Made by a program: the position numbers and the translations under genes | Origin: Geotalea daltonii FRC-32 | GTDB taxonomy: Bacteria > Desulfobacterota > Desulfuromonadia > Geobacterales > Geobacteraceae | Direction of reading: 5' to 3' | Length of the DNA: 32,000 nucleotides | Assembly: GCF_000022265.1 (NCBI RefSeq) | Contig: NC_011979.1 | Location: forward strand, 3,300,001 to 3,332,000 | Shown: positions 312 to 27,281 of the stretch, one piece after another | Numbering within the stretch: the stretch's first letter is position 1 | Layout: each line of letters starts with the position of its first letter | Notes under the pieces: model-generated | What the model was told of the DNA's origin: nothing | What the model saw: the letters and a program-made list of their open reading frames with translations, nothing else | Database searches by the model: none

Positions 312-340
312 GATCGTGAAAAAAGATTGCCTGAGACAGA

Positions 341-398
341 AAGGCGCCAATTATCAAGGACAACTGATGCTCCTGGATTATTGGCGCCTTTGCTTTTG
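341..398 (+). terminator. Rho-independent terminator after the Tex-like gene
   Basis: AAGGCGCCAAT (341-351) pairs with ATTGGCGCCTT (380-390), followed by TGCTTTTGC. The loop is long (~28 nt). Confidence 0.5.
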
Positions 399-417: not shown

Positions 418-597
418 TAGTTTCCATCCGGAAACTCCGGATGAGAAACTAGTGGTTTCCGATTCGGAAAGAGGGGATTTTTTGTTCTGGCAAGGAAATC
501 AAGGGCTTGCGCGGAGACGTACATCGGTACGTCGCACAAGTAAGCCCGCAGATTGACGCCGCCAGGGCAGAAAAGAACCCTTTCCGGATGGAAACTA
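418..597 (+). ncRNA. Candidate structured RNA / structured repeat, copy 1 (family unknown)
   Basis: A perfect 17-bp closing helix (418-434 with 581-597). A 13-bp inner helix (478-490 with 562-574, 3 G-U). Apical hairpins 503-508/542-547 and 516-522/527-533. Shares sequence blocks and compensated helices with 9952-10098. G-U pairs only work on the + strand. Confidence 0.45.
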
Positions 598-1035
598 TTT
601 ACAGCGGAGGAGTTTCCTGCCGATGTTGAAGAGGACCTCTATCTTGCCTTGCTGGCGGGAGCAGACCACGCCAAAGCCGAATACCGGGTGATCCAGGAGA
701 TCCTCTACTTTAAAGGAACCTTCCATATCGTAGGGAATTGCCCGCCCGGTATCTTTGGTGTGAAAAAGCCGTTCCCACTCTTCGCGCTCTGATTCTCCGG
801 CGTCTTTTTTCACCTTCGGCCGCGGCGATGCAGTTGATCCTGAAGCGGCTCTGCGCGGTTTAGGGTCTTCTTTCGGCTTCTCAGCACGATGGTTATGTTC
901 GCTGCCGCAGGTGTTGCATTTGACGCGGGCCACGCGTCCTCCCACCATGGCAATTATGGTATGGTTATACACAGCCTTGCATCGAGTACACATTGATTCT
1001 ATTTCACTGCCTGCAGCCAATATTCTTCCTGTCAT
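595..1035 (-). CDS. Zinc-ribbon protein with a basic linker and small C-terminal beta-rich domain (function unknown)
   Basis: 146-aa ORF. N-terminal CxxC...CxxC (CTRCKAV...KCNTCGS), a K/P/R-rich linker, and a C-terminal FKVEDLLDHPVFGFGVV...KIEVLF motif typical of small deltaproteobacterial Zn-ribbon proteins. No specific family recognised. Confidence 0.6.
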   Translation of the reverse strand: MTGRILAAGSEIESMCTRCKAVYNHTIIAMVGGRVARVKCNTCGSEHNHRAEKPKEDPKPRRAASGSTASPRPKVKKDAGESEREEWERLFHTKDTGRAIPYDMEGSFKVEDLLDHPVFGFGVVCSRQQGKIEVLFNIGRKLLRCK

Positions 1036-1109: not shown

Positions 1110-1194
1110 TGGTGCGAGATGGGAGACTTGAACTCCCACGAGTTACCCCGCCAGATCCTAAGTCTGGTGCGTCTGCCAATTCCGCCAATCTCGC
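1110..1194 (-). tRNA. tRNA-Leu (anticodon TAG), long variable arm, encoded CCA
   Basis: Hand-folded cloverleaf. Acceptor GCGAGAT/ATCTCGC; anticodon stem CCAGA/TCTGG with loop CT-TAG-GA; T arm GGGAG-TTCAAGT-CTCCC; 85 nt. Confidence 0.9.
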
Positions 1195-1213
1195 TTATCT
1201 GTCACTAATAATA

Positions 1214-1234
1214 AGCCCCGTTTTTGGCGGGGCT
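1214..1234 (-). terminator. Hairpin between tRNA-His and tRNA-Leu (weak terminator or processing signal)
   Basis: AGCCCCG-N7-CGGGGCT. On the - strand it is followed by TATTATTAG, which is U-rich but interrupted. Confidence 0.3.
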
Positions 1235-1245
1235 TTGTGTCTAGT

Positions 1246-1322
1246 TGGGGTGGCTAGTGGGATTCGAACCCACGTATGAACGAGTCACAGTCGTTTGTGT
1301 TAACCGCTTCACCATAGCCACC
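1246..1322 (-). tRNA. tRNA-His (anticodon GTG) with the extra G-1, encoded CCA
   Basis: Acceptor GTGGCTA/TAGCCAC preceded by G-1 opposite discriminator C; anticodon loop CT-GTG-AC; T arm GTGGG-TTCGAAT-CCCAC. Confidence 0.9.
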
Positions 1323-1334
1323 ATATGTGGGAAA

Positions 1335-1411
<77 letters not shown>

Positions 1412-1417
1412 ACAAAA

Positions 1418-1496
<79 letters not shown>

Positions 1497-2909: not shown

Positions 2910-4058
2910 CTACAAGTCGGATTGGGGTTTGGCCTGAAGAACTGGCAGGTAAAGAACCCTGCCGATGGAAGTGTTGCTCTTCTTGTCGAAGATACGCTTG
3001 CCGGTGGTCGGGGTGCCCTCTCCCCACCAATTACCCATTGCCTTGAAATCATCTGCTCCGGCATTGTATAGGTCGTAATCCCCGTTGCCGACAAAAGTGT
3101 TTCCCCAGGCAACCCCCTTGCCGTCTTCCACCCTGAGACCCACCTTGCTGTTATGGGAAATGTCGTTGGCAGTCACCTTCACCCTGGCTTTGGACAGAGT
3201 AACGCCATAGTCTTTGTTTTTCAGGATCCTGTTTCCTGATAGCGTGCCTTCACCCTGGATCAGGGTAACGCCGCTGCCGTTGACACTGAAGCTGTTGCCA
3301 ATAATCCTGATCCGTCCTCCTTCGACTTTGACCGCCTCCAGGCTGTTGCTGTAGAATGTTGATCCACCCAGATAAAGGGAAGACTGGAAAGCAACTACCG
3401 CCTGTCCATTGCCTGAATAATTAACATCTCGCACATCAGCCTCGGTTTCCGTCAGTTCCAACCCGATATTGCAATTAGTGGCCCCGCCTCCGACGATAAC
3501 AGCCATGCAGTCCTGAATCCTGGCACCTGTGCCACAAGCCGCAAAACCGACATTTTTAAGGGTTATTCTGGAAAAAAGAGCCTCGATCCCAGTTTCAGCA
3601 CCTGTTATCCGGCAGTTTTCCAGGACATTTTTCTTGTCGCTGGACATGATGACGATCCCTTGCCAGTCTCCCTGTGTCGGCTCCGTATATAAAGAGGTGA
3701 AAACTACTGGTTTGTCTGCCCCCCCAAGTGCCTGGATTCTGCCATGTATCAAGAAAACCGGTTTGTCCCCACCAGGTGACTGCCTGAAGAAAACAGTGGT
3801 GCCTGGCTCTAGTGTAAGAGTTGCCTGAGGGGCAAGAATGAGTCCACCTTCGACAAGCACATTGCCCTTCCAGGTTACATCCTCGGCGATGGTCCTGTTT
3901 TTATAGGTCAGGTCGGCAACAGGAGACAGAACCGTACGATCCGGACTATCAGTTTTGTTATCCCGGTCTCCTGCGGTTGCCGGACCGGGATTTCCTGACA
4001 AAGCCAACCCCATGGCGACAGCAGCATAAACGCAGACTTTCTTGAAAATCAGATACAT
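2910..4058 (-). CDS. Secreted right-handed parallel beta-helix repeat protein (NosD/CASH-like)
   Basis: 382 aa. N-terminal signal peptide (MYLIFKKVCVYAAVAMGLALS). Repeated ~22-aa units (xGxxIxxxNCxIxG, GIxL, NxIxxN) typical of pectin-lyase-fold proteins. Confidence 0.65.
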   Translation of the reverse strand: MYLIFKKVCVYAAVAMGLALSGNPGPATAGDRDNKTDSPDRTVLSPVADLTYKNRTIAEDVTWKGNVLVEGGLILAPQATLTLEPGTTVFFRQSPGGDKPVFLIHGRIQALGGADKPVVFTSLYTEPTQGDWQGIVIMSSDKKNVLENCRITGAETGIEALFSRITLKNVGFAACGTGARIQDCMAVIVGGGATNCNIGLELTETEADVRDVNYSGNGQAVVAFQSSLYLGGSTFYSNSLEAVKVEGGRIRIIGNSFSVNGSGVTLIQGEGTLSGNRILKNKDYGVTLSKARVKVTANDISHNSKVGLRVEDGKGVAWGNTFVGNGDYDLYNAGADDFKAMGNWWGEGTPTTGKRIFDKKSNTSIGRVLYLPVLQAKPQSDL

Positions 4059-5357: not shown

Positions 5358-7586
5358 ATGAAAAAAACAACCAAGGGAAACATTCCGGGTTTATCGAAAA
5401 ATGCTGTCACTGTCCTGGAGAAGCGTTACCTGAAGCGGGACAAGGATGGAAAAGTACTCGAATCCCCCGTGGATATGTTTCGCCGGGTTGCCGAATCCAT
5501 TGCCGCAGCAGATGCAAGATTCGATAAAAAAGCCGATATCGCTGCTCTTGCCGACAAATTTTTTGCCATGATGACCTCCTTCGAATTTCTTCCCAACTCC
5601 CCCACATTGATGAACGCAGGTCGTGAGCTGGGTCAACTCTCCGCCTGTTTCGTCCTCCCGGTGGGAGATTCCATGGAAGAAATTTTCGATGCGGTAAAAC
5701 ACACTGCCCTCATCCACAAGTCCGGAGGGGGTACAGGTTTTTCATTTTCACGTCTCCGCCCGGCCAACGACATGGTCATGTCGACTACCGGCATTTCCAG
5801 CGGCCCCCTCTCCTTCATGCGCGTTTTTGATGTGGCTACCGAAACCATAAAGCAGGGAGGAACGAGACGCGGCGCCAACATGGGCATTCTGCGGGTCGAT
5901 CATCCCGATATCATGGATTTCATCATGTGCAAGGCAGATCAAAGACAGCTGAACAACTTTAACATCTCAGTCGGCCTTACCGAAGAATTCATGAAGGCTG
6001 TGGACGCAGATCGCGAGTATAACCTGATCAACCCACGCAGTGGTGAAAAAGCCGGTAGCCTCAACGCCCGCAAGGTCTTCAACCGGATCGTCAAGCAGGC
6101 CTGGGAAAATGGCGAGCCGGGCATCATCTTTATCGACCGCCTCAACAAGGACAACCCGACCCCCCACATCGGCCAGATCGAATCCACCAACCCCTGTGGA
6201 GAGCAACCGTTGCTACCCTACGAGTCGTGCAATCTGGGCTCAATAAATCTTGGCAAGATGGTGGAACATGGCGAAATCAACTGGCAGCGCCTCAAGGAGG
6301 TCATCCTGCTGGCAGTGAACTTCCTGGACAATGTCATCGAGGTCAACAACTATCCCCTCGAACAGATTGACGCCATGACCCGCGCCAACCGCAAGATCGG
6401 CCTGGGTGTCATGGGCTGGGCCGATTTGCTGATCCTGCTCGGCATCCCTTACAATTCCAAGGAAGCAATCGAGCTGGGCGAAAAAATCATGAAATTCATC
6501 AACGATGAAGGACATGCCGCCTCTGTGCAACTGGCAAAAGTTCGCGGGCCTTTCCCCAATTTCAAAGGCTCTATCTTTGACAAGCCGGGCATGGAGCCGA
6601 TCAGAAACGCAACTGTCACCACCATTGCACCCACCGGCACCATATCCATTATCGCCAACGCCTCTTCGGGTGTGGAGCCGCTCTTTGCCGTCTCCTTCAT
6701 CCGCCAGGTAATGGACAAAAATATTCTTCTCGAAGTTAATCCCATCTTTGAAGAAACGGCAAAAAAAGAGGGTTTTTATTCGGAAGAGCTGATGCAGAAA
6801 ATTGCCGAGCATGGCACTGTCCATGATATCCCGGAAATACCCGAACAGATCAGGAATGTGTTTGTCACCGCCCACGACATCACTCCTGAAGTTCATATTT
6901 CCATGCAGGCAGCCTTCCAGAAACATACAGACAATGCCGTCAGCAAAACGGTCAACTTCCCCAATTCGGCCACCATCGAAGAGGTGGAAAAGGTCTACCG
7001 TCTTGCCTATGAGACAAACTGCAAGGGGGTAACCATCTACCGCGACGGTTCCAGGGACGAACAGGTTCTTTCCACCGGAAAGAAGGATGAAGCACCGAAA
7101 ACCCTGCCGGTTGCCGATGAAAAACGGTCACACAAACGTGAGCGACCCAAGGCCCTCAAAGGGTGGACATATCAGATGCAGACCGGTTGCGGCCCCCTCT
7201 ATGTGACGGTCAACGAAGACAAGAGCGGTCTCTTTGAACTTTTCACCACCATGGGAAAGGCCGGCGGCTGTGCCGCTTCACAGAGCGAAGCTATCGGTCG
7301 AATGGTATCACTGGCATGGCGCAGTGGCATTCAGGCGCGCCAGGTTATCAAGCAGCTGCTGGGCATTTCCTGCCACTGTCCGGCCGGCTTCGGTGAAAAC
7401 AAGGTTCTTTCCTGCGCCGACGCTGTAGCCAAAGCAATTCAGGCACACATGCAGGAAAGCGGCATCGATATGGGCATAGAGCAGGCCGCCTTCGACCGTG
7501 GAGCATGCCCCGAATGCGGCGGCATCGTCGAACACGAGGGAGGATGCGCCGTCTGCCGGGTCTGCGGCTATAGTGAATGCGCGTAA
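5358..7586 (+). CDS. nrdJ: Adenosylcobalamin-dependent ribonucleoside-di/triphosphate reductase, class II
   Basis: 742 aa. Motifs LPNSPTLMNAG, SACFVL, GGGTGFSFSRLRP, active-site TNPCGEQPL. C-terminal CPECGG...CAVCRVCG zinc ribbon. Good RBS (AAGGAGAA). Confidence 0.92.
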   Translation: MKKTTKGNIPGLSKNAVTVLEKRYLKRDKDGKVLESPVDMFRRVAESIAAADARFDKKADIAALADKFFAMMTSFEFLPNSPTLMNAGRELGQLSACFVLPVGDSMEEIFDAVKHTALIHKSGGGTGFSFSRLRPANDMVMSTTGISSGPLSFMRVFDVATETIKQGGTRRGANMGILRVDHPDIMDFIMCKADQRQLNNFNISVGLTEEFMKAVDADREYNLINPRSGEKAGSLNARKVFNRIVKQAWENGEPGIIFIDRLNKDNPTPHIGQIESTNPCGEQPLLPYESCNLGSINLGKMVEHGEINWQRLKEVILLAVNFLDNVIEVNNYPLEQIDAMTRANRKIGLGVMGWADLLILLGIPYNSKEAIELGEKIMKFINDEGHAASVQLAKVRGPFPNFKGSIFDKPGMEPIRNATVTTIAPTGTISIIANASSGVEPLFAVSFIRQVMDKNILLEVNPIFEETAKKEGFYSEELMQKIAEHGTVHDIPEIPEQIRNVFVTAHDITPEVHISMQAAFQKHTDNAVSKTVNFPNSATIEEVEKVYRLAYETNCKGVTIYRDGSRDEQVLSTGKKDEAPKTLPVADEKRSHKRERPKALKGWTYQMQTGCGPLYVTVNEDKSGLFELFTTMGKAGGCAASQSEAIGRMVSLAWRSGIQARQVIKQLLGISCHCPAGFGENKVLSCADAVAKAIQAHMQESGIDMGIEQAAFDRGACPECGGIVEHEGGCAVCRVCGYSECA

Positions 7587-9646: not shown

Positions 9647-9925
9647 ATGCAGTGGCACGTTTACATAATTCAGTGCTTGGACAGTTCCCTCTACACCGGA
9701 ATCACCACCGACATAACACGAAGGTTCAGGGACCATGCCGCAGGCCGGGGTGCAAAATATTTCCGCCTTCATCCCCCAAAGAAATTGGTTTACGTGGAGT
9801 CGGGACATTCCAGAAGCAGCGCCGGCAAAAGGGAGATAGAGATCAAACGCTTGAAGCGGGCCGAAAAAATCCGTTTAACCTTGCAGGCAATGTCACCGAT
9901 TGACGGCGGGAGTTTGAACGTATAA
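9647..9925 (+). CDS. Small GIY-YIG nuclease superfamily protein (UPF0213/YhbQ-like)
   Basis: 92 aa. WHVYIIQCLDSSLYTGITTDITRRFRDH...GAKYFR...LVYVE...REIEIKRL is the standard stand-alone GIY-YIG pattern. Confidence 0.8.
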   Translation: MQWHVYIIQCLDSSLYTGITTDITRRFRDHAAGRGAKYFRLHPPKKLVYVESGHSRSSAGKREIEIKRLKRAEKIRLTLQAMSPIDGGSLNV

Positions 9926-9951
9926 GTTGAATAATCATTTGCCTGGTGTCC

Positions 9952-10098
9952 CGTGCGGTTAGTTCTCTGCAAGAATTTCGAGGGATTTTGGTTCCCGGCA
10001 AGGCGCGGCGACGCAGGCCTAGCAGGGCCTAAGCCGAAAGCCGCAACACAGCCGGGGGCCAAAAGACCCGAAATTATCAAGAAAGAATTAACCGCACG
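9952..10098 (+). ncRNA. Candidate structured RNA / structured repeat, copy 2
   Basis: A 15-bp closing helix (9952-9966 with 10084-10098, one G-U). Helices 9974-9979/10070-10075 and 9982-9984/10067-10069. A 13-bp helix 9986-9998/10052-10064. Sequence blocks GAGGGAUUUUGGUUCCCGGCAAGG, GCGCGGCGACG and AAAAGACCC are shared with copy 1. Confidence 0.45.
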
Positions 10099-10128
10099 TG
10101 ACCACTAGTCTTTCCTGAAGGAGATCCC

Positions 10129-11280
10129 ATGGGCATTACACTTTTGGACATGTTGCTTAATGCCGGCCTTATCAACAAGGAGCAGTTCGAAGAAGCCTTG
10201 AAGAACCGCGTTCTTTATGGTGGAAAGATCGGCACCAGCCTTATAGAATTGGGATATTTAAAGGAAGAAGACCTGGCCCGCTTCCTGGGCAAGAAACTTG
10301 CCGTCCCCTTTGTCGGGGCCGATCGACTGCTTAACATCTCCCCTGAAATAATCGAGCTTATCCCGAAGGAACTGGCGCTGACCTATGGCGTTATTCCCAT
10401 TCATCGTGATAAAAAACGACTGTATCTTGTCATGTCCGATCCTGCCGATCTGAAAGCCATCGATGAACTCTCCTTCACGACCGGTTTCATCATCAATCCG
10501 GTTGCTGCACCCGAGCTACGTCTGATGCAAGCACTGGGTAAATACTACGATTATGAAGTGGACCGGCGCTATCTGCAGATACTGCAACGCATAGAGCATG
10601 AAAAACCGGCTGAAAAACCCAAAGTCCTGCCTTCAGCTAAAAAGGCCACTGATGAAATACCGGCAGCAACGGAGTCAGCACCTGCCGCTGCCCCAGAGAC
10701 TGCAAAAACGACAGCACCCGAGGCGGTCGAAGAAGATCATCTGCAAGAGGTTGAAATTGTCGATAACGAGGAATTGGTGCGGCGGGTCGGTCACTACTCC
10801 ATTGATCTGGTTTCCCAGACACTGGCCAAGGTGGATGACCGGGAAGAAATTGCCGATACCCTTGTGGGTTACCTGAGCCAGGAGTTCAAGCGGGTTGCCT
10901 TGTTCGTCATCAGAGGTGACGCTGCCTTCGGTTGGAAAGGTGTCAACAGGGGTGAGGGAATTCGCGACTTCAGCAAGGTAGTAGTCCCTTTCATGGGTCA
11001 ATCGGTGCTGAAGACGGTGACTGACGGTATGGCCTATTATCTGGGCTCGATTCCCGACACCTCTGAGAATATGGTCATGATTAGCGGCATGGGGGGAGAG
11101 AAACCTTCTGCCGCCCTGCTGCTCCCCCTGATCGTCTCCGGCCGGGTGGTGATGATCCTTTATGTTGACGGAGGAGAAAGGGAGCTTGGTGAACGGTTCA
11201 TGGAGCTGCACAGGCTTCTGGCCAAGGCCGTGCTCGCTTTTGAAATCCTCATCTTCAGGGAAAAAATCCTCATGCTGTGA
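10129..11280 (+). CDS. T2SSE_N (MshEN-like) domain protein with C-terminal GAF-like domain
   Basis: 383 aa. The N-terminus LLDMLLNAGLINKEQFEEAL ... KIGTSLIELGYLKEEDLARFLGKK resembles the tandem MshEN motif. A Pro/Ala/Glu-rich linker follows, then a C-terminal GAF-like fold (VALFVIRGD...LPLIVSGRVVMILYVD). RBS GAAGGAG. Confidence 0.7.
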   Translation: MGITLLDMLLNAGLINKEQFEEALKNRVLYGGKIGTSLIELGYLKEEDLARFLGKKLAVPFVGADRLLNISPEIIELIPKELALTYGVIPIHRDKKRLYLVMSDPADLKAIDELSFTTGFIINPVAAPELRLMQALGKYYDYEVDRRYLQILQRIEHEKPAEKPKVLPSAKKATDEIPAATESAPAAAPETAKTTAPEAVEEDHLQEVEIVDNEELVRRVGHYSIDLVSQTLAKVDDREEIADTLVGYLSQEFKRVALFVIRGDAAFGWKGVNRGEGIRDFSKVVVPFMGQSVLKTVTDGMAYYLGSIPDTSENMVMISGMGGEKPSAALLLPLIVSGRVVMILYVDGGERELGERFMELHRLLAKAVLAFEILIFREKILML

Positions 11281-27033: not shown

Positions 27034-27043
27034 TTTCAGGAAA

Positions 27044-27205
27044 TTCCTCGTTAGGAAGAGGCGTTAGCACAAACAGAAGCTACTGCCCAGAAACGTCGAA
27101 AGACGCCAATGCGGTAGACCAGATTCAGTCGGATTAAGGCTTTATCTAAGGTAGCTGGTGGTGGTTCACCTACGTTGTGCTCTGCTAAAACTCAAACCAG
27201 GGGAA
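27044..27205 (+). ncRNA. M-box (ykoK leader) Mg2+-sensing riboswitch aptamer
   Basis: Conserved M-box blocks in the right order: CGUUAGG-AGAGGC, CUGCCCAGAAACGUCGAAAGACGCCAAUG, UUAAGGC, GUAGCUGG, ACGUUGUGCUCUGCUAAAACUC. This closely parallels the B. subtilis mgtE leader as I recall it. Confidence 0.85.
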
Positions 27206-27226
27206 AATGGTGTCCTTTTGCGCATG

Positions 27227-27257: not shown

Positions 27258-27281
27258 GTGAATACAGACCAAAAGGACATA

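Follow-up and report, generated by a model that had tools for sequence, protein, structure and literature searches.

A probable IS630-type miniature element in Geotalea daltonii carries a widespread core with a covarying, strand-specific fold

Introduction

MITEs of the IS630/Tc1-mariner type, such as Correia/NEMIS of Neisseria and MADE1 of humans, are small and non-coding, carry terminal inverted repeats and are flanked by a duplicated TA. They are intergenic, often located at operon junctions, they form a long hairpin if single-stranded, and their ends match those of an autonomous insertion sequence (IS). The transposases of the IS630/Tc1-mariner group cut an element out via its end repeats and paste it into a TA, while the interiors of MITEs are usually treated as leftover junk of the IS. 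To our knowledge, no core common to many families is known for MITEs of the Correia/NEMIS or MADE1 type. A different group of mobile DNAs, which includes integron attC sites and the end hairpins of IS200/IS605, follows a logic in which the structure and a few unpaired bases are kept, the helices drift, and one strand folds properly. These sites are used by tyrosine or HUH recombinases, and no target duplication is made.

Reviews of MITEs report no common core of this kind (PMC3184786, PMC10969869). They include Chunjie, a MITE found in Geobacter uraniireducens Rf4 (NC_009483:2632106-2632324; Chen et al. 2008), which, in the parts of its description available to us, is A+T-rich and 178-235 bp long, forms hairpins of -98 to -130 kcal/mol, has 21-bp repeats and 9-bp direct repeats (for example ACGACCGGT), and was found inserted in an operon that it left unbroken (PMC3184786, PMC10969869, PMC6042816). 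In the same group of bacteria, 24 "predicted short RNA elements", Gmet_R1001-R1024, were listed for G. metallireducens (Aklujkar et al. 2009; PMC2700814, Additional file 4). They are multicopy sequences of 109-116 nt, matched by BLAST and printed as the strand opposite to the one used here, and the family was also noted in G. sulfurreducens (GSU0160.1), G. uraniireducens, and Desulfotalea psychrophila (PMC2700814). That report describes no structure, mobility, or terminal repeats for the family, and its distribution is limited to four genomes (PMC2700814). A search for later literature on GSU0160.1 or Gmet_R1005 found no follow-up, and a literature search with strings of the core sequence described below returned unrelated primers and nothing else.

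Here, we analyzed a window of 32,000 nt from Geotalea daltonii FRC-32 (NC_011979.1, positions 3,300,001 to 3,332,000), which contains two copies of a structured element. Copy 2, the main subject of this work, shares the features of IS630/Tc1-mariner-type MITEs named above, with the TA duplication presumed from its family, but it differs from them in that its interior is no deletion remnant of the IS, and in that this interior module crosses at least seven phyla and occurs with other ends and other duplication lengths. The family of copy 1, with elements of 174-235 nt, resembles Chunjie in organism group, length, and folding energy, as judged from the available description of the latter. By the same description, copy 2 is set apart from Chunjie by its length of 160 bp, its G+C content of 55-63%, and its TA duplication, and copy 1 by its length of 176 bp and its 6-bp duplication. 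Both copies are unlike attC sites and IS200/IS605 in carrying DDE-type signatures, and the likeness to these systems is one of logic, not of membership.

Results

Copy 2 occupies a gene junction that is empty in relatives

Copy 2 is located in the spacer between a GIY-YIG gene and an MshEN gene (10129-11280), which starts 23 nt past the element on the same strand. Its features are as follows (window coordinates):

9946..10105, plus strand: copy 2, probably a full 160-nt MITE of an IS630-type family, with ends GTGTCCYGTGCGGTTA...; 162 nt beyond the empty site
9946..9966, plus strand: left terminal inverted repeat, which pairs with 10084-10105
10084..10105, plus strand: right terminal inverted repeat, with slight decay (one G inserted, one substitution)
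9944..9945, no strand: presumed left TA target duplication, mutated to TG; the flank is CTG
10106..10107, no strand: presumed right TA target duplication; the flank is TAG
9976..10074, plus strand: structured core (covariance model R1, 86.2 bits, E = 4e-23)
9986..9999, plus strand: 5' strand of helix P2, with its partner at 10051-10064; read directly
10051..10064, plus strand: 3' strand of P2; read directly, and seen in the fold and in the pair statistics of the family

The length of the GIY-YIG/MshEN spacer was compared among related genomes, with the following result:

Window: 203 nt, with copy 2
L001 (Geotalea toluenoxydans assembly): 36 nt, without copy 2
L002 (Geotalea sp. SG265): 32 nt, without copy 2
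L003 (groundwater metagenome): 79 nt, without copy 2

The alignment of the window with L001 and L002 (alignment A1) contained a single clean gap of 162 nt at copy 2, and the empty site of L001 reads GCC-TA-TTTTTTCC. The MshEN-domain protein encoded downstream is 98% identical to the protein of G. toluenoxydans. Copy 1 was likewise missing from its site in L001 and L002, and a search of L001-L004 with covariance model R1 gave no match to the core. Because the orthologous sites are empty and these four loci contain no core, neither copy is a conserved leader, and both are recent insertions. Copy 2 lengthens a 36-nt operon junction by 162 nt. The two genes are closely spaced, and copy 2 has left intact both the stop codon before it and the Shine-Dalgarno sequence after it. 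Most likely, copy 2 is today a passenger at this operon junction.

A reading made earlier from the sequence alone (the sequence-only reading) had considered copy 2 a structure-selected RNA, possibly a part of the mRNA leader of the gene at 10129, and had asked whether orthologous loci retain it. They do not, as it is missing from L001, L002, and L003. The covariation and the stable fold described below, as well as the closeness of the element to the start codon at 10129, which lies 23 nt past its end on the same strand, would agree with a cis-regulatory RNA or leader of the MshEN gene, or with a stand-alone chromosomal sRNA gene that is not a transposon. However, nothing corresponding to the element stands upstream of the orthologous gene in the three relatives, the terminal repeats are identical to those of an IS and are associated with TA duplications, and the repeat of copy 2 recurs at 120 or more metagenome loci. 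The homologues adjoin unrelated genes in either orientation (16 sense, 15 antisense), with no conserved position ahead of one class of genes such as a riboswitch-like leader would have, and the two copies in the window share no neighboring gene, as had been noticed before for the downstream gene. A leader function is thus unsupported, since the orientation is random and the orthologues do without the element. Because the orthologous sites are empty, the leader or sRNA gene reading is contradicted, and we regard it as highly improbable.

The ends of copy 2 match those of IS630-family insertion sequences

A scan of metagenomes with the terminal repeat of copy 2, TAGTGTCCYGTGCGGYTAR, returned at least 120 loci, so that copies of the element are many and dispersed, as is typical of MITEs. 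Most of these loci contain elements of 158-162 nt with the core, and at least 77 matches to R1 were found among the loci listed. Among the metagenome matches listed, 33 of the 44 distinct full copies are flanked by cTA on the left and TAg on the right. Copy 2 is 89% identical to the consensus of the 44 metagenome copies, each of which is 158-162 nt long. The full-length elements were sorted by their flanks into three groups. The family of copy 2 (window, L015, L070) and all elements from Binatia start with GTGTCC or GTGTGG, and the flanks of this group read cTA...TAg. The Firmicutes and Elusimicrobia families start with GAACCTG, GGAAGC, or GGACCC and have the flanks TTA, TAA, or TTAA, and the remaining group is the family of copy 1, described below.

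At least three metagenome loci contain elements of 1150-1160 bp which have the ends of copy 2 and the flanks cTA...TAg (L235 212-1361; L281 211-1366; and L227, reverse strand, 1160 bp). Each of them has one open reading frame of 365-380 aa, with a DDE_3 domain (E = 1.1e-22) and homeodomain-like HTH_32/29/28/23 domains (HTH_32, E = 1.3e-18), and the homologues of this protein are named 'IS630 family transposase' in databases. The first 20 nt of copy 2 (9946-9965) are matched at 20/20 positions by the 1156-bp IS of L281 at its left end, and the IS of L235 gives 16/16 nt, while the right repeat of copy 2 matches the IS ends, in reverse orientation, at 87-90%. The similarity between copy 2 and the partner IS is limited to the terminal 20-22 nt. 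Because these terminal nucleotides alone are common to both, the repeats of copy 2 derive from an IS630-family IS, and its interior does not. No partner IS was found for the TTA/TAA families, and a BLAST search of copy 2 against 72,556 plasmids gave zero matches.

Two further metagenome loci are informative about the target and the ends. In L307, an element of the copy 2 type is nested at a CTAG within an element of the copy 1 type, which confirms the preference for CTAG as a target. The 61-nt element in L230 has the ends of copy 2 and a TA duplication and is without the core, so that an element can exist with no more than the repeats. At copy 2 itself the flanks read TG...TA, and the empty site of L001 is CTAT, not CTAG. 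For this reason, the duplication of TA at this site is presumed from the flanks of the family. Copy 2 seems to be a somewhat aged copy, because its left TA has become TG and its right repeat contains one inserted base.

The small size of copy 2 (160 nt), its lack of coding capacity, its inverted repeats (9946-9966 versus 10084-10105), and its absence from L001, L002, and L003 are all as in known MITEs. The only open reading frame that overlaps it (9790-10080, minus strand, 96 aa) is a mechanical one running across the hairpin. Insertion of the family into the TA of CTAG, with duplication of TA, and a partner transposase with HTH and DDE_3 domains are both consistent with dependence on IS630. 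Because the site is empty in relatives, the ends are identical to those of IS630-family elements, and the family resides at CTAG sites with a duplicated TA, copy 2 is very probably a MITE whose ends are those of an IS630-type insertion sequence. The view that it is not a transposon, expressed in the sequence-only reading, is contradicted by the empty sites, by the IS-identical ends, and by the cTA...TAg flanks.

Copy 2 forms a stable hairpin with compensatory changes relative to copy 1

The predicted minimum free energy as RNA was -86.6 kcal/mol for copy 2 and -86.3 kcal/mol for 9945-10105, the latter with z = -8.65, and 0 of 200 shuffled sequences were equally stable, which places the fold far from chance. 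The core of copy 2, with a G+C content of 63%, consists of the end of helix P1, a GA-rich internal loop, helix P2, the junction GGCAAGG / AACACAGCC, and an apical hairpin. When read directly from the sequence, the 5' strand of P2 (9986-9998) is UUUUGGUUCCCGG and its partner (10052-10064) is CCGGGGGCCAAAA. These strands form 13 bp, including 2 U·G, and the pair C9999-G10051 extends the helix to 14 bp.

The corresponding helix of copy 1 is formed by 478-490 and 562-574. Comparison of the two copies confirmed the observation, made earlier from the sequence, that P2 differs at five columns and that pairing is intact in all five. The changes from copy 1 to copy 2 are U·G to G-C, U-A to G-C, G-C to U·G, U·G to C-G, and U-A to C-G, so that two are double Watson-Crick changes and three involve G·U, as had been counted. 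The blocks reported as shared, GAGGGAUUUU, GGCAAGG, GCGCGG.GACG, AAGCC, and AAAAGA(A)CCC, were also located in both copies. The closing helix of copy 2 (9952-9966 / 10084-10098) indeed has 15 bp with a single G·U pair (G9962·U10088). It had been described as completely different from that of copy 1, which is correct in part, as both copies begin with GTKTCC (copy 1 GTTTCCATCCGG, copy 2 GTGTCCCGTGCGG). On the other hand, its interpretation as RNA structure did not hold, because this helix is the pair of terminal inverted repeats, the first 20 nt of which are identical to the end of an IS630-family IS. The distance of 30 nt given to the ATG shortens to 23 nt, since the element and its hairpin extend over 9946-10105.

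Copy 1 belongs to a second MITE family

Copy 1 is located in the spacer between the Tex gene and a gene for a 146-aa protein, which is 182 nt shorter in L001 and L002 than in the window. Its features are as follows:

420..595, plus strand: copy 1, a 176-nt MITE of a second family, with ends GTKTCCATCCGGAAAC ... GTTTCCGGATGGAAAC; the orthologous site is empty in L001 and L002
414..419, no strand: left 6-bp target duplication TATTTA, from comparison with the empty site of L001
596..601, no strand: right 6-bp target duplication TATTTA, from the same comparison
468..584, plus strand: structured core (covariance model R1, 74.9 bits, E = 1e-19)

The sequence TATTTA is single in L001 and double in the window, with one on each side of 420-595, so that the 6-bp duplication of copy 1 is intact and confirmed by the empty site. 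Copy 1 has a perfect 17-nt inverted repeat (418-434 / 581-597), and its predicted RNA minimum free energy was -100.2 kcal/mol (z = -12.7). Its homologues, which are 174-235 nt long (L009, L042, L061, L063, L073, L074, L075, L090), belong to a family with site-dependent duplications of 6 bp, once 7 bp (TATTTA, TAGTTA, TACCTA, TAGCTC, TGGTCTA). A search for an autonomous partner with the ends of copy 1 found none, and returned only another MITE of ~206 nt with the same ends. We assign copy 1 to a second family of MITEs. The insertion point of copy 1 is a stop codon. An IHF-like sequence, AATCAAGGGCTTG, is confined to the family of copy 1.

The core is common to elements with different ends in at least seven phyla

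The inner part of both copies follows the pattern CGAGGGAUUUU / covarying helix / GGCAAGG ... AACGCAGCC / AAAAGACCCG, which spans ~100 nt. The architecture common to the elements, from outside to inside, starts with a long closing stem that is specific to each family. The segment C-G / bulged A / GG-CC comes next, then an internal loop rich in GA (GAGGGA / GACCC), P2, a junction, and a variable inner helix with the apical hairpin. In the family, P2 has first four U-A pairs that do not vary, then seven pairs with strong covariation, and finally G-C/C-G. The junction is GGCAAGG ... (A)ACGCAGCC, or GGCAAGG / AACGCAGCC in the other notation. The unpaired blocks are invariant across phyla, while the helices turn over.

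Genomes, one per species, were scanned with a loose pattern of the core, and 120 loci in genomes other than that of the window were listed, mostly chance matches. Folding and covariance model R1, built from 33 hand-picked cores, were used to sort true cores from chance matches at E < 0.01, and 49 matches passed this threshold among the genome-scan loci listed. The hosts are Geobacteraceae, Syntrophobacteraceae, other Thermodesulfobacteriota, Binatia, Elusimicrobia, Saprospiraceae, Acidovorax, Negativicutes (Schwartzia, Selenomonadales), and Clostridia (Oscillospiraceae, Flavonifractor), which represent at least seven phyla. Several 8-kb loci carry two copies of the core. As a control of specificity, 96 viral loci with chance matches to the pattern were examined, and true cores were present in one of them (L154). 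Since this locus alone has true cores, there is no link to phages. A search of the window and 18 homologue loci against Rfam 15 at the gathering threshold gave no match, and a search of both copies and L013 in E-value mode returned solely miRNA-hairpin matches far below threshold. Several other candidates did not fit and were set aside: 6S RNA, SRP RNA, K-turn, hammerhead, retron msr/msd, IS110 bridge RNA, TnpB/IscB omega RNA, plasmid ssoA origins, attC sites, CsrA sponge, and IHF site.

Covariation was analyzed in an alignment of 45 sequences with 22 modeled pairs. The pair cells were standard in 92.6% of cases, as compared to 65.5% in shuffles and at most 55% when the partners were slid by 1-3 columns. 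Changes on both sides occurred in 16 of the 22 pairs, and there were 295 double-change cells, while 93.5 were expected from shuffles. The covariation score was 0.693 versus 0.19, and 0 of 500 shuffles reached the observed value. The paired columns thus covary strongly across the 45 homologues, which is the outcome that the sequence-only reading had anticipated from a covariance model. Its claim of covariation could not be sustained by two copies alone and was established by this larger set.

The short RNA elements of G. metallireducens provide a further comparison. After reverse complementation, this family has the same core, GUGGAUUUU / helix / CAAGG ... GCGGAGGCGUAGC..GCUACGCC ... AACGCAG / helix / AAAAGCC. 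Eight of its members, taken as reverse complements, fold as P1 / UUUU-AAAA P2 / apical hairpin and align with copy 1, and their alignment covaries independently of the sequences in model R1. Copies 1 and 2 are unlike this family in having additional long terminal repeats. Hence, the core was noticed in 2009, as short RNAs, while its fold, its mobility, and its spread across phyla go beyond that listing. Gmet_R1005 corresponds to GSU0160.1, which is a copy of the core at the same position in two Geobacter species (PMC2700814); therefore, some copies of the core could have a function for the host.

The same core is contained in MITEs with different ends, among them those of copy 1 (6 bp, TANNNN), of Firmicutes and Elusimicrobia (TTA/TAA), and of Binatia (TA in CTAG). 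It is unusual among MITEs that one core goes with three kinds of target duplication, and this is not explained by a simple deletion within an IS. The inner ~100 nt is a separate conserved module that is not derived from the partner IS.

One strand of the element is under structural selection

Among the 22 modeled pairs, G·U-type cells outnumbered A·C-type cells by 93 to 9 (binomial p ~1e-18), and in the variable columns there were 82 T·G and 3 C·A. In 28 of 28 full-length elements, the strand of the model folded more stably than the complementary one, by a mean of 11.7 kcal/mol with RNA parameters, and for both copies in the window the given strand was the more stable one. The prevalence of G·U over A·C and the uniform strand preference indicate that a single strand is under structural selection. 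A double-stranded palindrome or a cruciform would not give rise to this asymmetry. When DNA energy parameters were used, the model strand won again in 28 of 28 elements, by a mean of 6.0 kcal/mol, and for this reason the energetics do not separate RNA from single-stranded DNA. The term structure-selected RNA, used in the sequence-only reading, is therefore supported as far as structural selection on one strand is concerned, while its RNA nature does not follow from the fold energies, which give 28 of 28 either way.

These data also bear on the possibility that P2 is a pair of inverted sites in double-stranded DNA, such as inner transposase sites of Tc1 elements of the IR/DR type, the arms of which change together to fit one protein. 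Both arms, when read inward, are CG.GG..TTTT-N7-GGC, and N7 differs between families in both arms, as such sites could do. However, a symmetric site predicts neither the 82 T·G versus 3 C·A nor the preference for one strand in all elements, the partner IS is without these sites, and the core also occurs with ends which imply different transposases. Paired DNA sites are thus an improbable explanation of P2.

The orientation of the elements was compared with that of flanking open reading frames (at least 150 aa, crude calls) and with local GC skew. The 16 sense and 15 antisense cases mentioned above are those of tandem contexts, and at gene ends 11 elements were in convergent and 3 in divergent contexts; such a convergent excess is usual for tolerated insertions. 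The orientation relative to GC skew was unbiased (35 versus 46). The absence of orientation bias relative to reading frames or GC skew therefore supports neither an RNA model nor a lagging-strand model. The gene-end preference, together with the strand-specific fold and the conserved unpaired bases, would suit a REP/REPIN-like or IS200/IS605-derived palindrome that a HUH (Y1) transposase moves in the form of single-stranded DNA. This origin is very hard to reconcile with the ends of copy 2, which are those of an IS630-family IS, with true duplications that depend on the site (TATTTA, TAGTTA, TACCTA, TAGCTC), with the lack of a GTAG or CGTC tag, and with the unbiased GC skew. The site-specific duplications and the missing tag also set the elements apart from REP/REPIN sequences mobilized by RAYT.

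To see where selection acts, stem variants were counted in the family of copy 2. Those private to a single copy comprised 17 G·U, 13 A·C, and 41 other mismatches, while those present in several copies included 133 double Watson-Crick cells and 85 G·U versus 45 A·C. Because the private variants do not spare the fold, the resident copies decay neutrally. Together with the random orientation, this decay suggests that the fold serves the spread of the element itself. Resident copies would then not be maintained by the host, and the lineages still proliferating would be those that keep the fold.

Discussion

The data obtained for copy 2 are consistent with a mechanism in which an IS supplies the transposase in trans, the transposase binds the two terminal repeats of copy 2 and excises the element, and the excised element is pasted into a TA, which is duplicated. 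The supply in trans and the cut-and-paste step are proposed here from the established biology of IS630/Tc1-mariner elements. The core fold, as a single strand, may in addition help the propagation of the element in cis. We know of no need of IS630-type transposases for single-stranded or folded substrates. We tentatively favor, at somewhat less than even chances, a role of the fold in cis, as a folded single strand of DNA or RNA, in the propagation of the element and not for a host gene, with the private variants on which it draws being few (17 G·U versus 13 A·C).

Regarding the core as a whole, it is possible, though rather doubtful, that this uncharacterized and widespread module was captured repeatedly by MITEs of different transposases in at least seven phyla, or co-diversified with them, and was kept because its one-strand fold and invariant loops act specifically, either as a mobilization enhancer in the form of a folded single strand or as an RNA that recruits a conserved host factor.

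A related possibility is that the core functions as an RNA. It would be transcribed by read-through or from a promoter of its own, its loops would be recognized by a conserved host factor such as a ribonuclease or an RNA-binding protein, and the MITE ends would be no more than its vehicle. This recognition might insulate or process the transcript, so that insertions in operons are tolerated. Transcripts of Correia elements, for instance, are processed by RNase III. The U·G pairs, which are frequent and sometimes tandem (93 G·U-type versus 9 A·C-type), the larger strand advantage with RNA than with DNA parameters (-11.7 versus -6.0 kcal/mol), and the invariance of unpaired blocks across phyla while helices turn over would be expected of such an RNA, and the position of copy 2 between an intact stop codon and an intact Shine-Dalgarno sequence would be compatible with it. 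Furthermore, the dapAB-dapL transcription unit of G. metallireducens contains one copy, at a position common to G. sulfurreducens, and the family of this copy was annotated as short RNAs (PMC2700814). On the other hand, there is no sense bias (16 versus 15), scans of copies 1 and 2 revealed neither a sigma-70-like promoter nor an intrinsic terminator, the private mutations of resident copies do not keep pairing, the orthologous loci work without the element, and the DNA-parameter fold prefers the same strand in 28 of 28 cases. We consider a functional RNA of this kind an unlikely explanation, although a real contender, and give a role of the fold at the RNA level in general similarly modest weight.

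For annotation, these results mean that the two "structured RNAs" of the window are MITE insertions and not riboswitch-like leaders, and that covariation alone cannot tell a host RNA gene from a mobile element. In these MITEs the interior is the conserved part, with compensatory evolution, a strand-specific fold, and invariant loops which are maintained across phyla and across different ends. If the fold does act in cis in transposition, it would link DDE-type MITEs to single-strand structure, so far a trait of HUH and integron systems. If instead it has a role as RNA, the core would amount to an unclassified RNA motif, very abundant in bacteria, that is spread by transposition.

Insertion of copy 1 at a stop codon

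The insertion point of copy 1, the 176-nt MITE at 420-595 (+), coincides with the stop codon of a gene encoding 146 amino acids (minus-strand ORF 595-1035; stop at window positions 595-601). The 3′ end of this gene reads CGC TGT AAA TAA in the empty orthologous site of G. toluenoxydans (L001), whereas it reads CGC TGT AAA TAG in the window. The first two bases of the new TAG codon, TA, belong to the target duplication, and its G derives from the last base of copy 1. Because the stop codon was rebuilt in this way, the length of the protein is unchanged. Copy 1 also lies downstream of an inverted repeat, which is probably the terminator of the Tex/S1 gene. This repeat and other features of the window are listed below; the riboswitch is located upstream of an ORF with its start near 27258.

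Features of the window
340-391, inverted repeat of 21 bp with 90% complementarity and then a T-rich run, just 3′ of the Tex/S1 gene
418-470, additional 5′ module of copy 1's family
1113-1496 (-), four clustered tRNA genes
27040-27209 (+), M-box (magnesium) riboswitch, Rfam RF00380, 133.9 bits

In the additional 5′ module the left repeat GTTTCCATCCGGAAAC precedes a local complement of itself, UCCGGAUGAGAAAC; next comes a diverged second copy of the repeat, GGUUUCCGAUUCGGAAAG, which pairs with the right end. The right end can therefore pair in two alternative ways.

Related and divergent copies of the core

The core shared by copy 1 and copy 2 is also found, reverse-complemented, in the Gmet_R10xx elements of Geobacter metallireducens. 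The strand printed for their alignment (PMC2700814, Additional file 4) was the worse-folding one in seven of the eight sequences tested. Gmet_R1005 is reported to have the same dapAB-dapL position as GSU0160.1 of G. sulfurreducens (PMC2700814), which would make it an old copy retained in position. Two divergent cores with short closing stems (GCGGGAUUUC... ACAAGG... AACGCAGUAAU...) were found on an IMG/VR contig classed as viral (L154), so the family is wider than the search pattern used here.

Divergent cores, both antisense to the surrounding genes
L154 750-870
L154 5429-5549

Partial and nested elements, and a MITE with shared ends

A 61-nt mini-element (L230 2615-2677) consists only of the two terminal repeats of copy 2 and a short spacer, without the core, and has a TA duplication. 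The right flank of the Binatia element in L043 (…CACCACAC TAGTGTCAGGACACTA) holds the short palindrome GTGTC-AG-GACAC, flanked by TA and immediately next to a full element; this palindrome resembles a footprint, or a remnant consisting of repeat alone. In an Oscillospiraceae genome (L054, about 2975-3116) the core is partially duplicated in tandem, with a copy of its 3′ half immediately upstream of a complete one.

An element of the copy 2 type is nested in one of the copy 1 type, at the CTAG of ...GAGAAACTAGTG... (L307 1231-1560), which shows that the two families coexist in one genome. Furthermore, a MITE of about 206 nt carries copy 1's terminal repeats around an unrelated interior (…GGAAAATGT…GAGGGTCGG…).

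MITE of about 206 nt with copy 1's ends
L254 117-320
L290 around 6200-6409
L330 690-895

This MITE may be the published Chunjie element of Geobacter uraniireducens Rf4. It combines copy 1's repeats with a different interior, so ends and interiors seem to be modules that can be exchanged.
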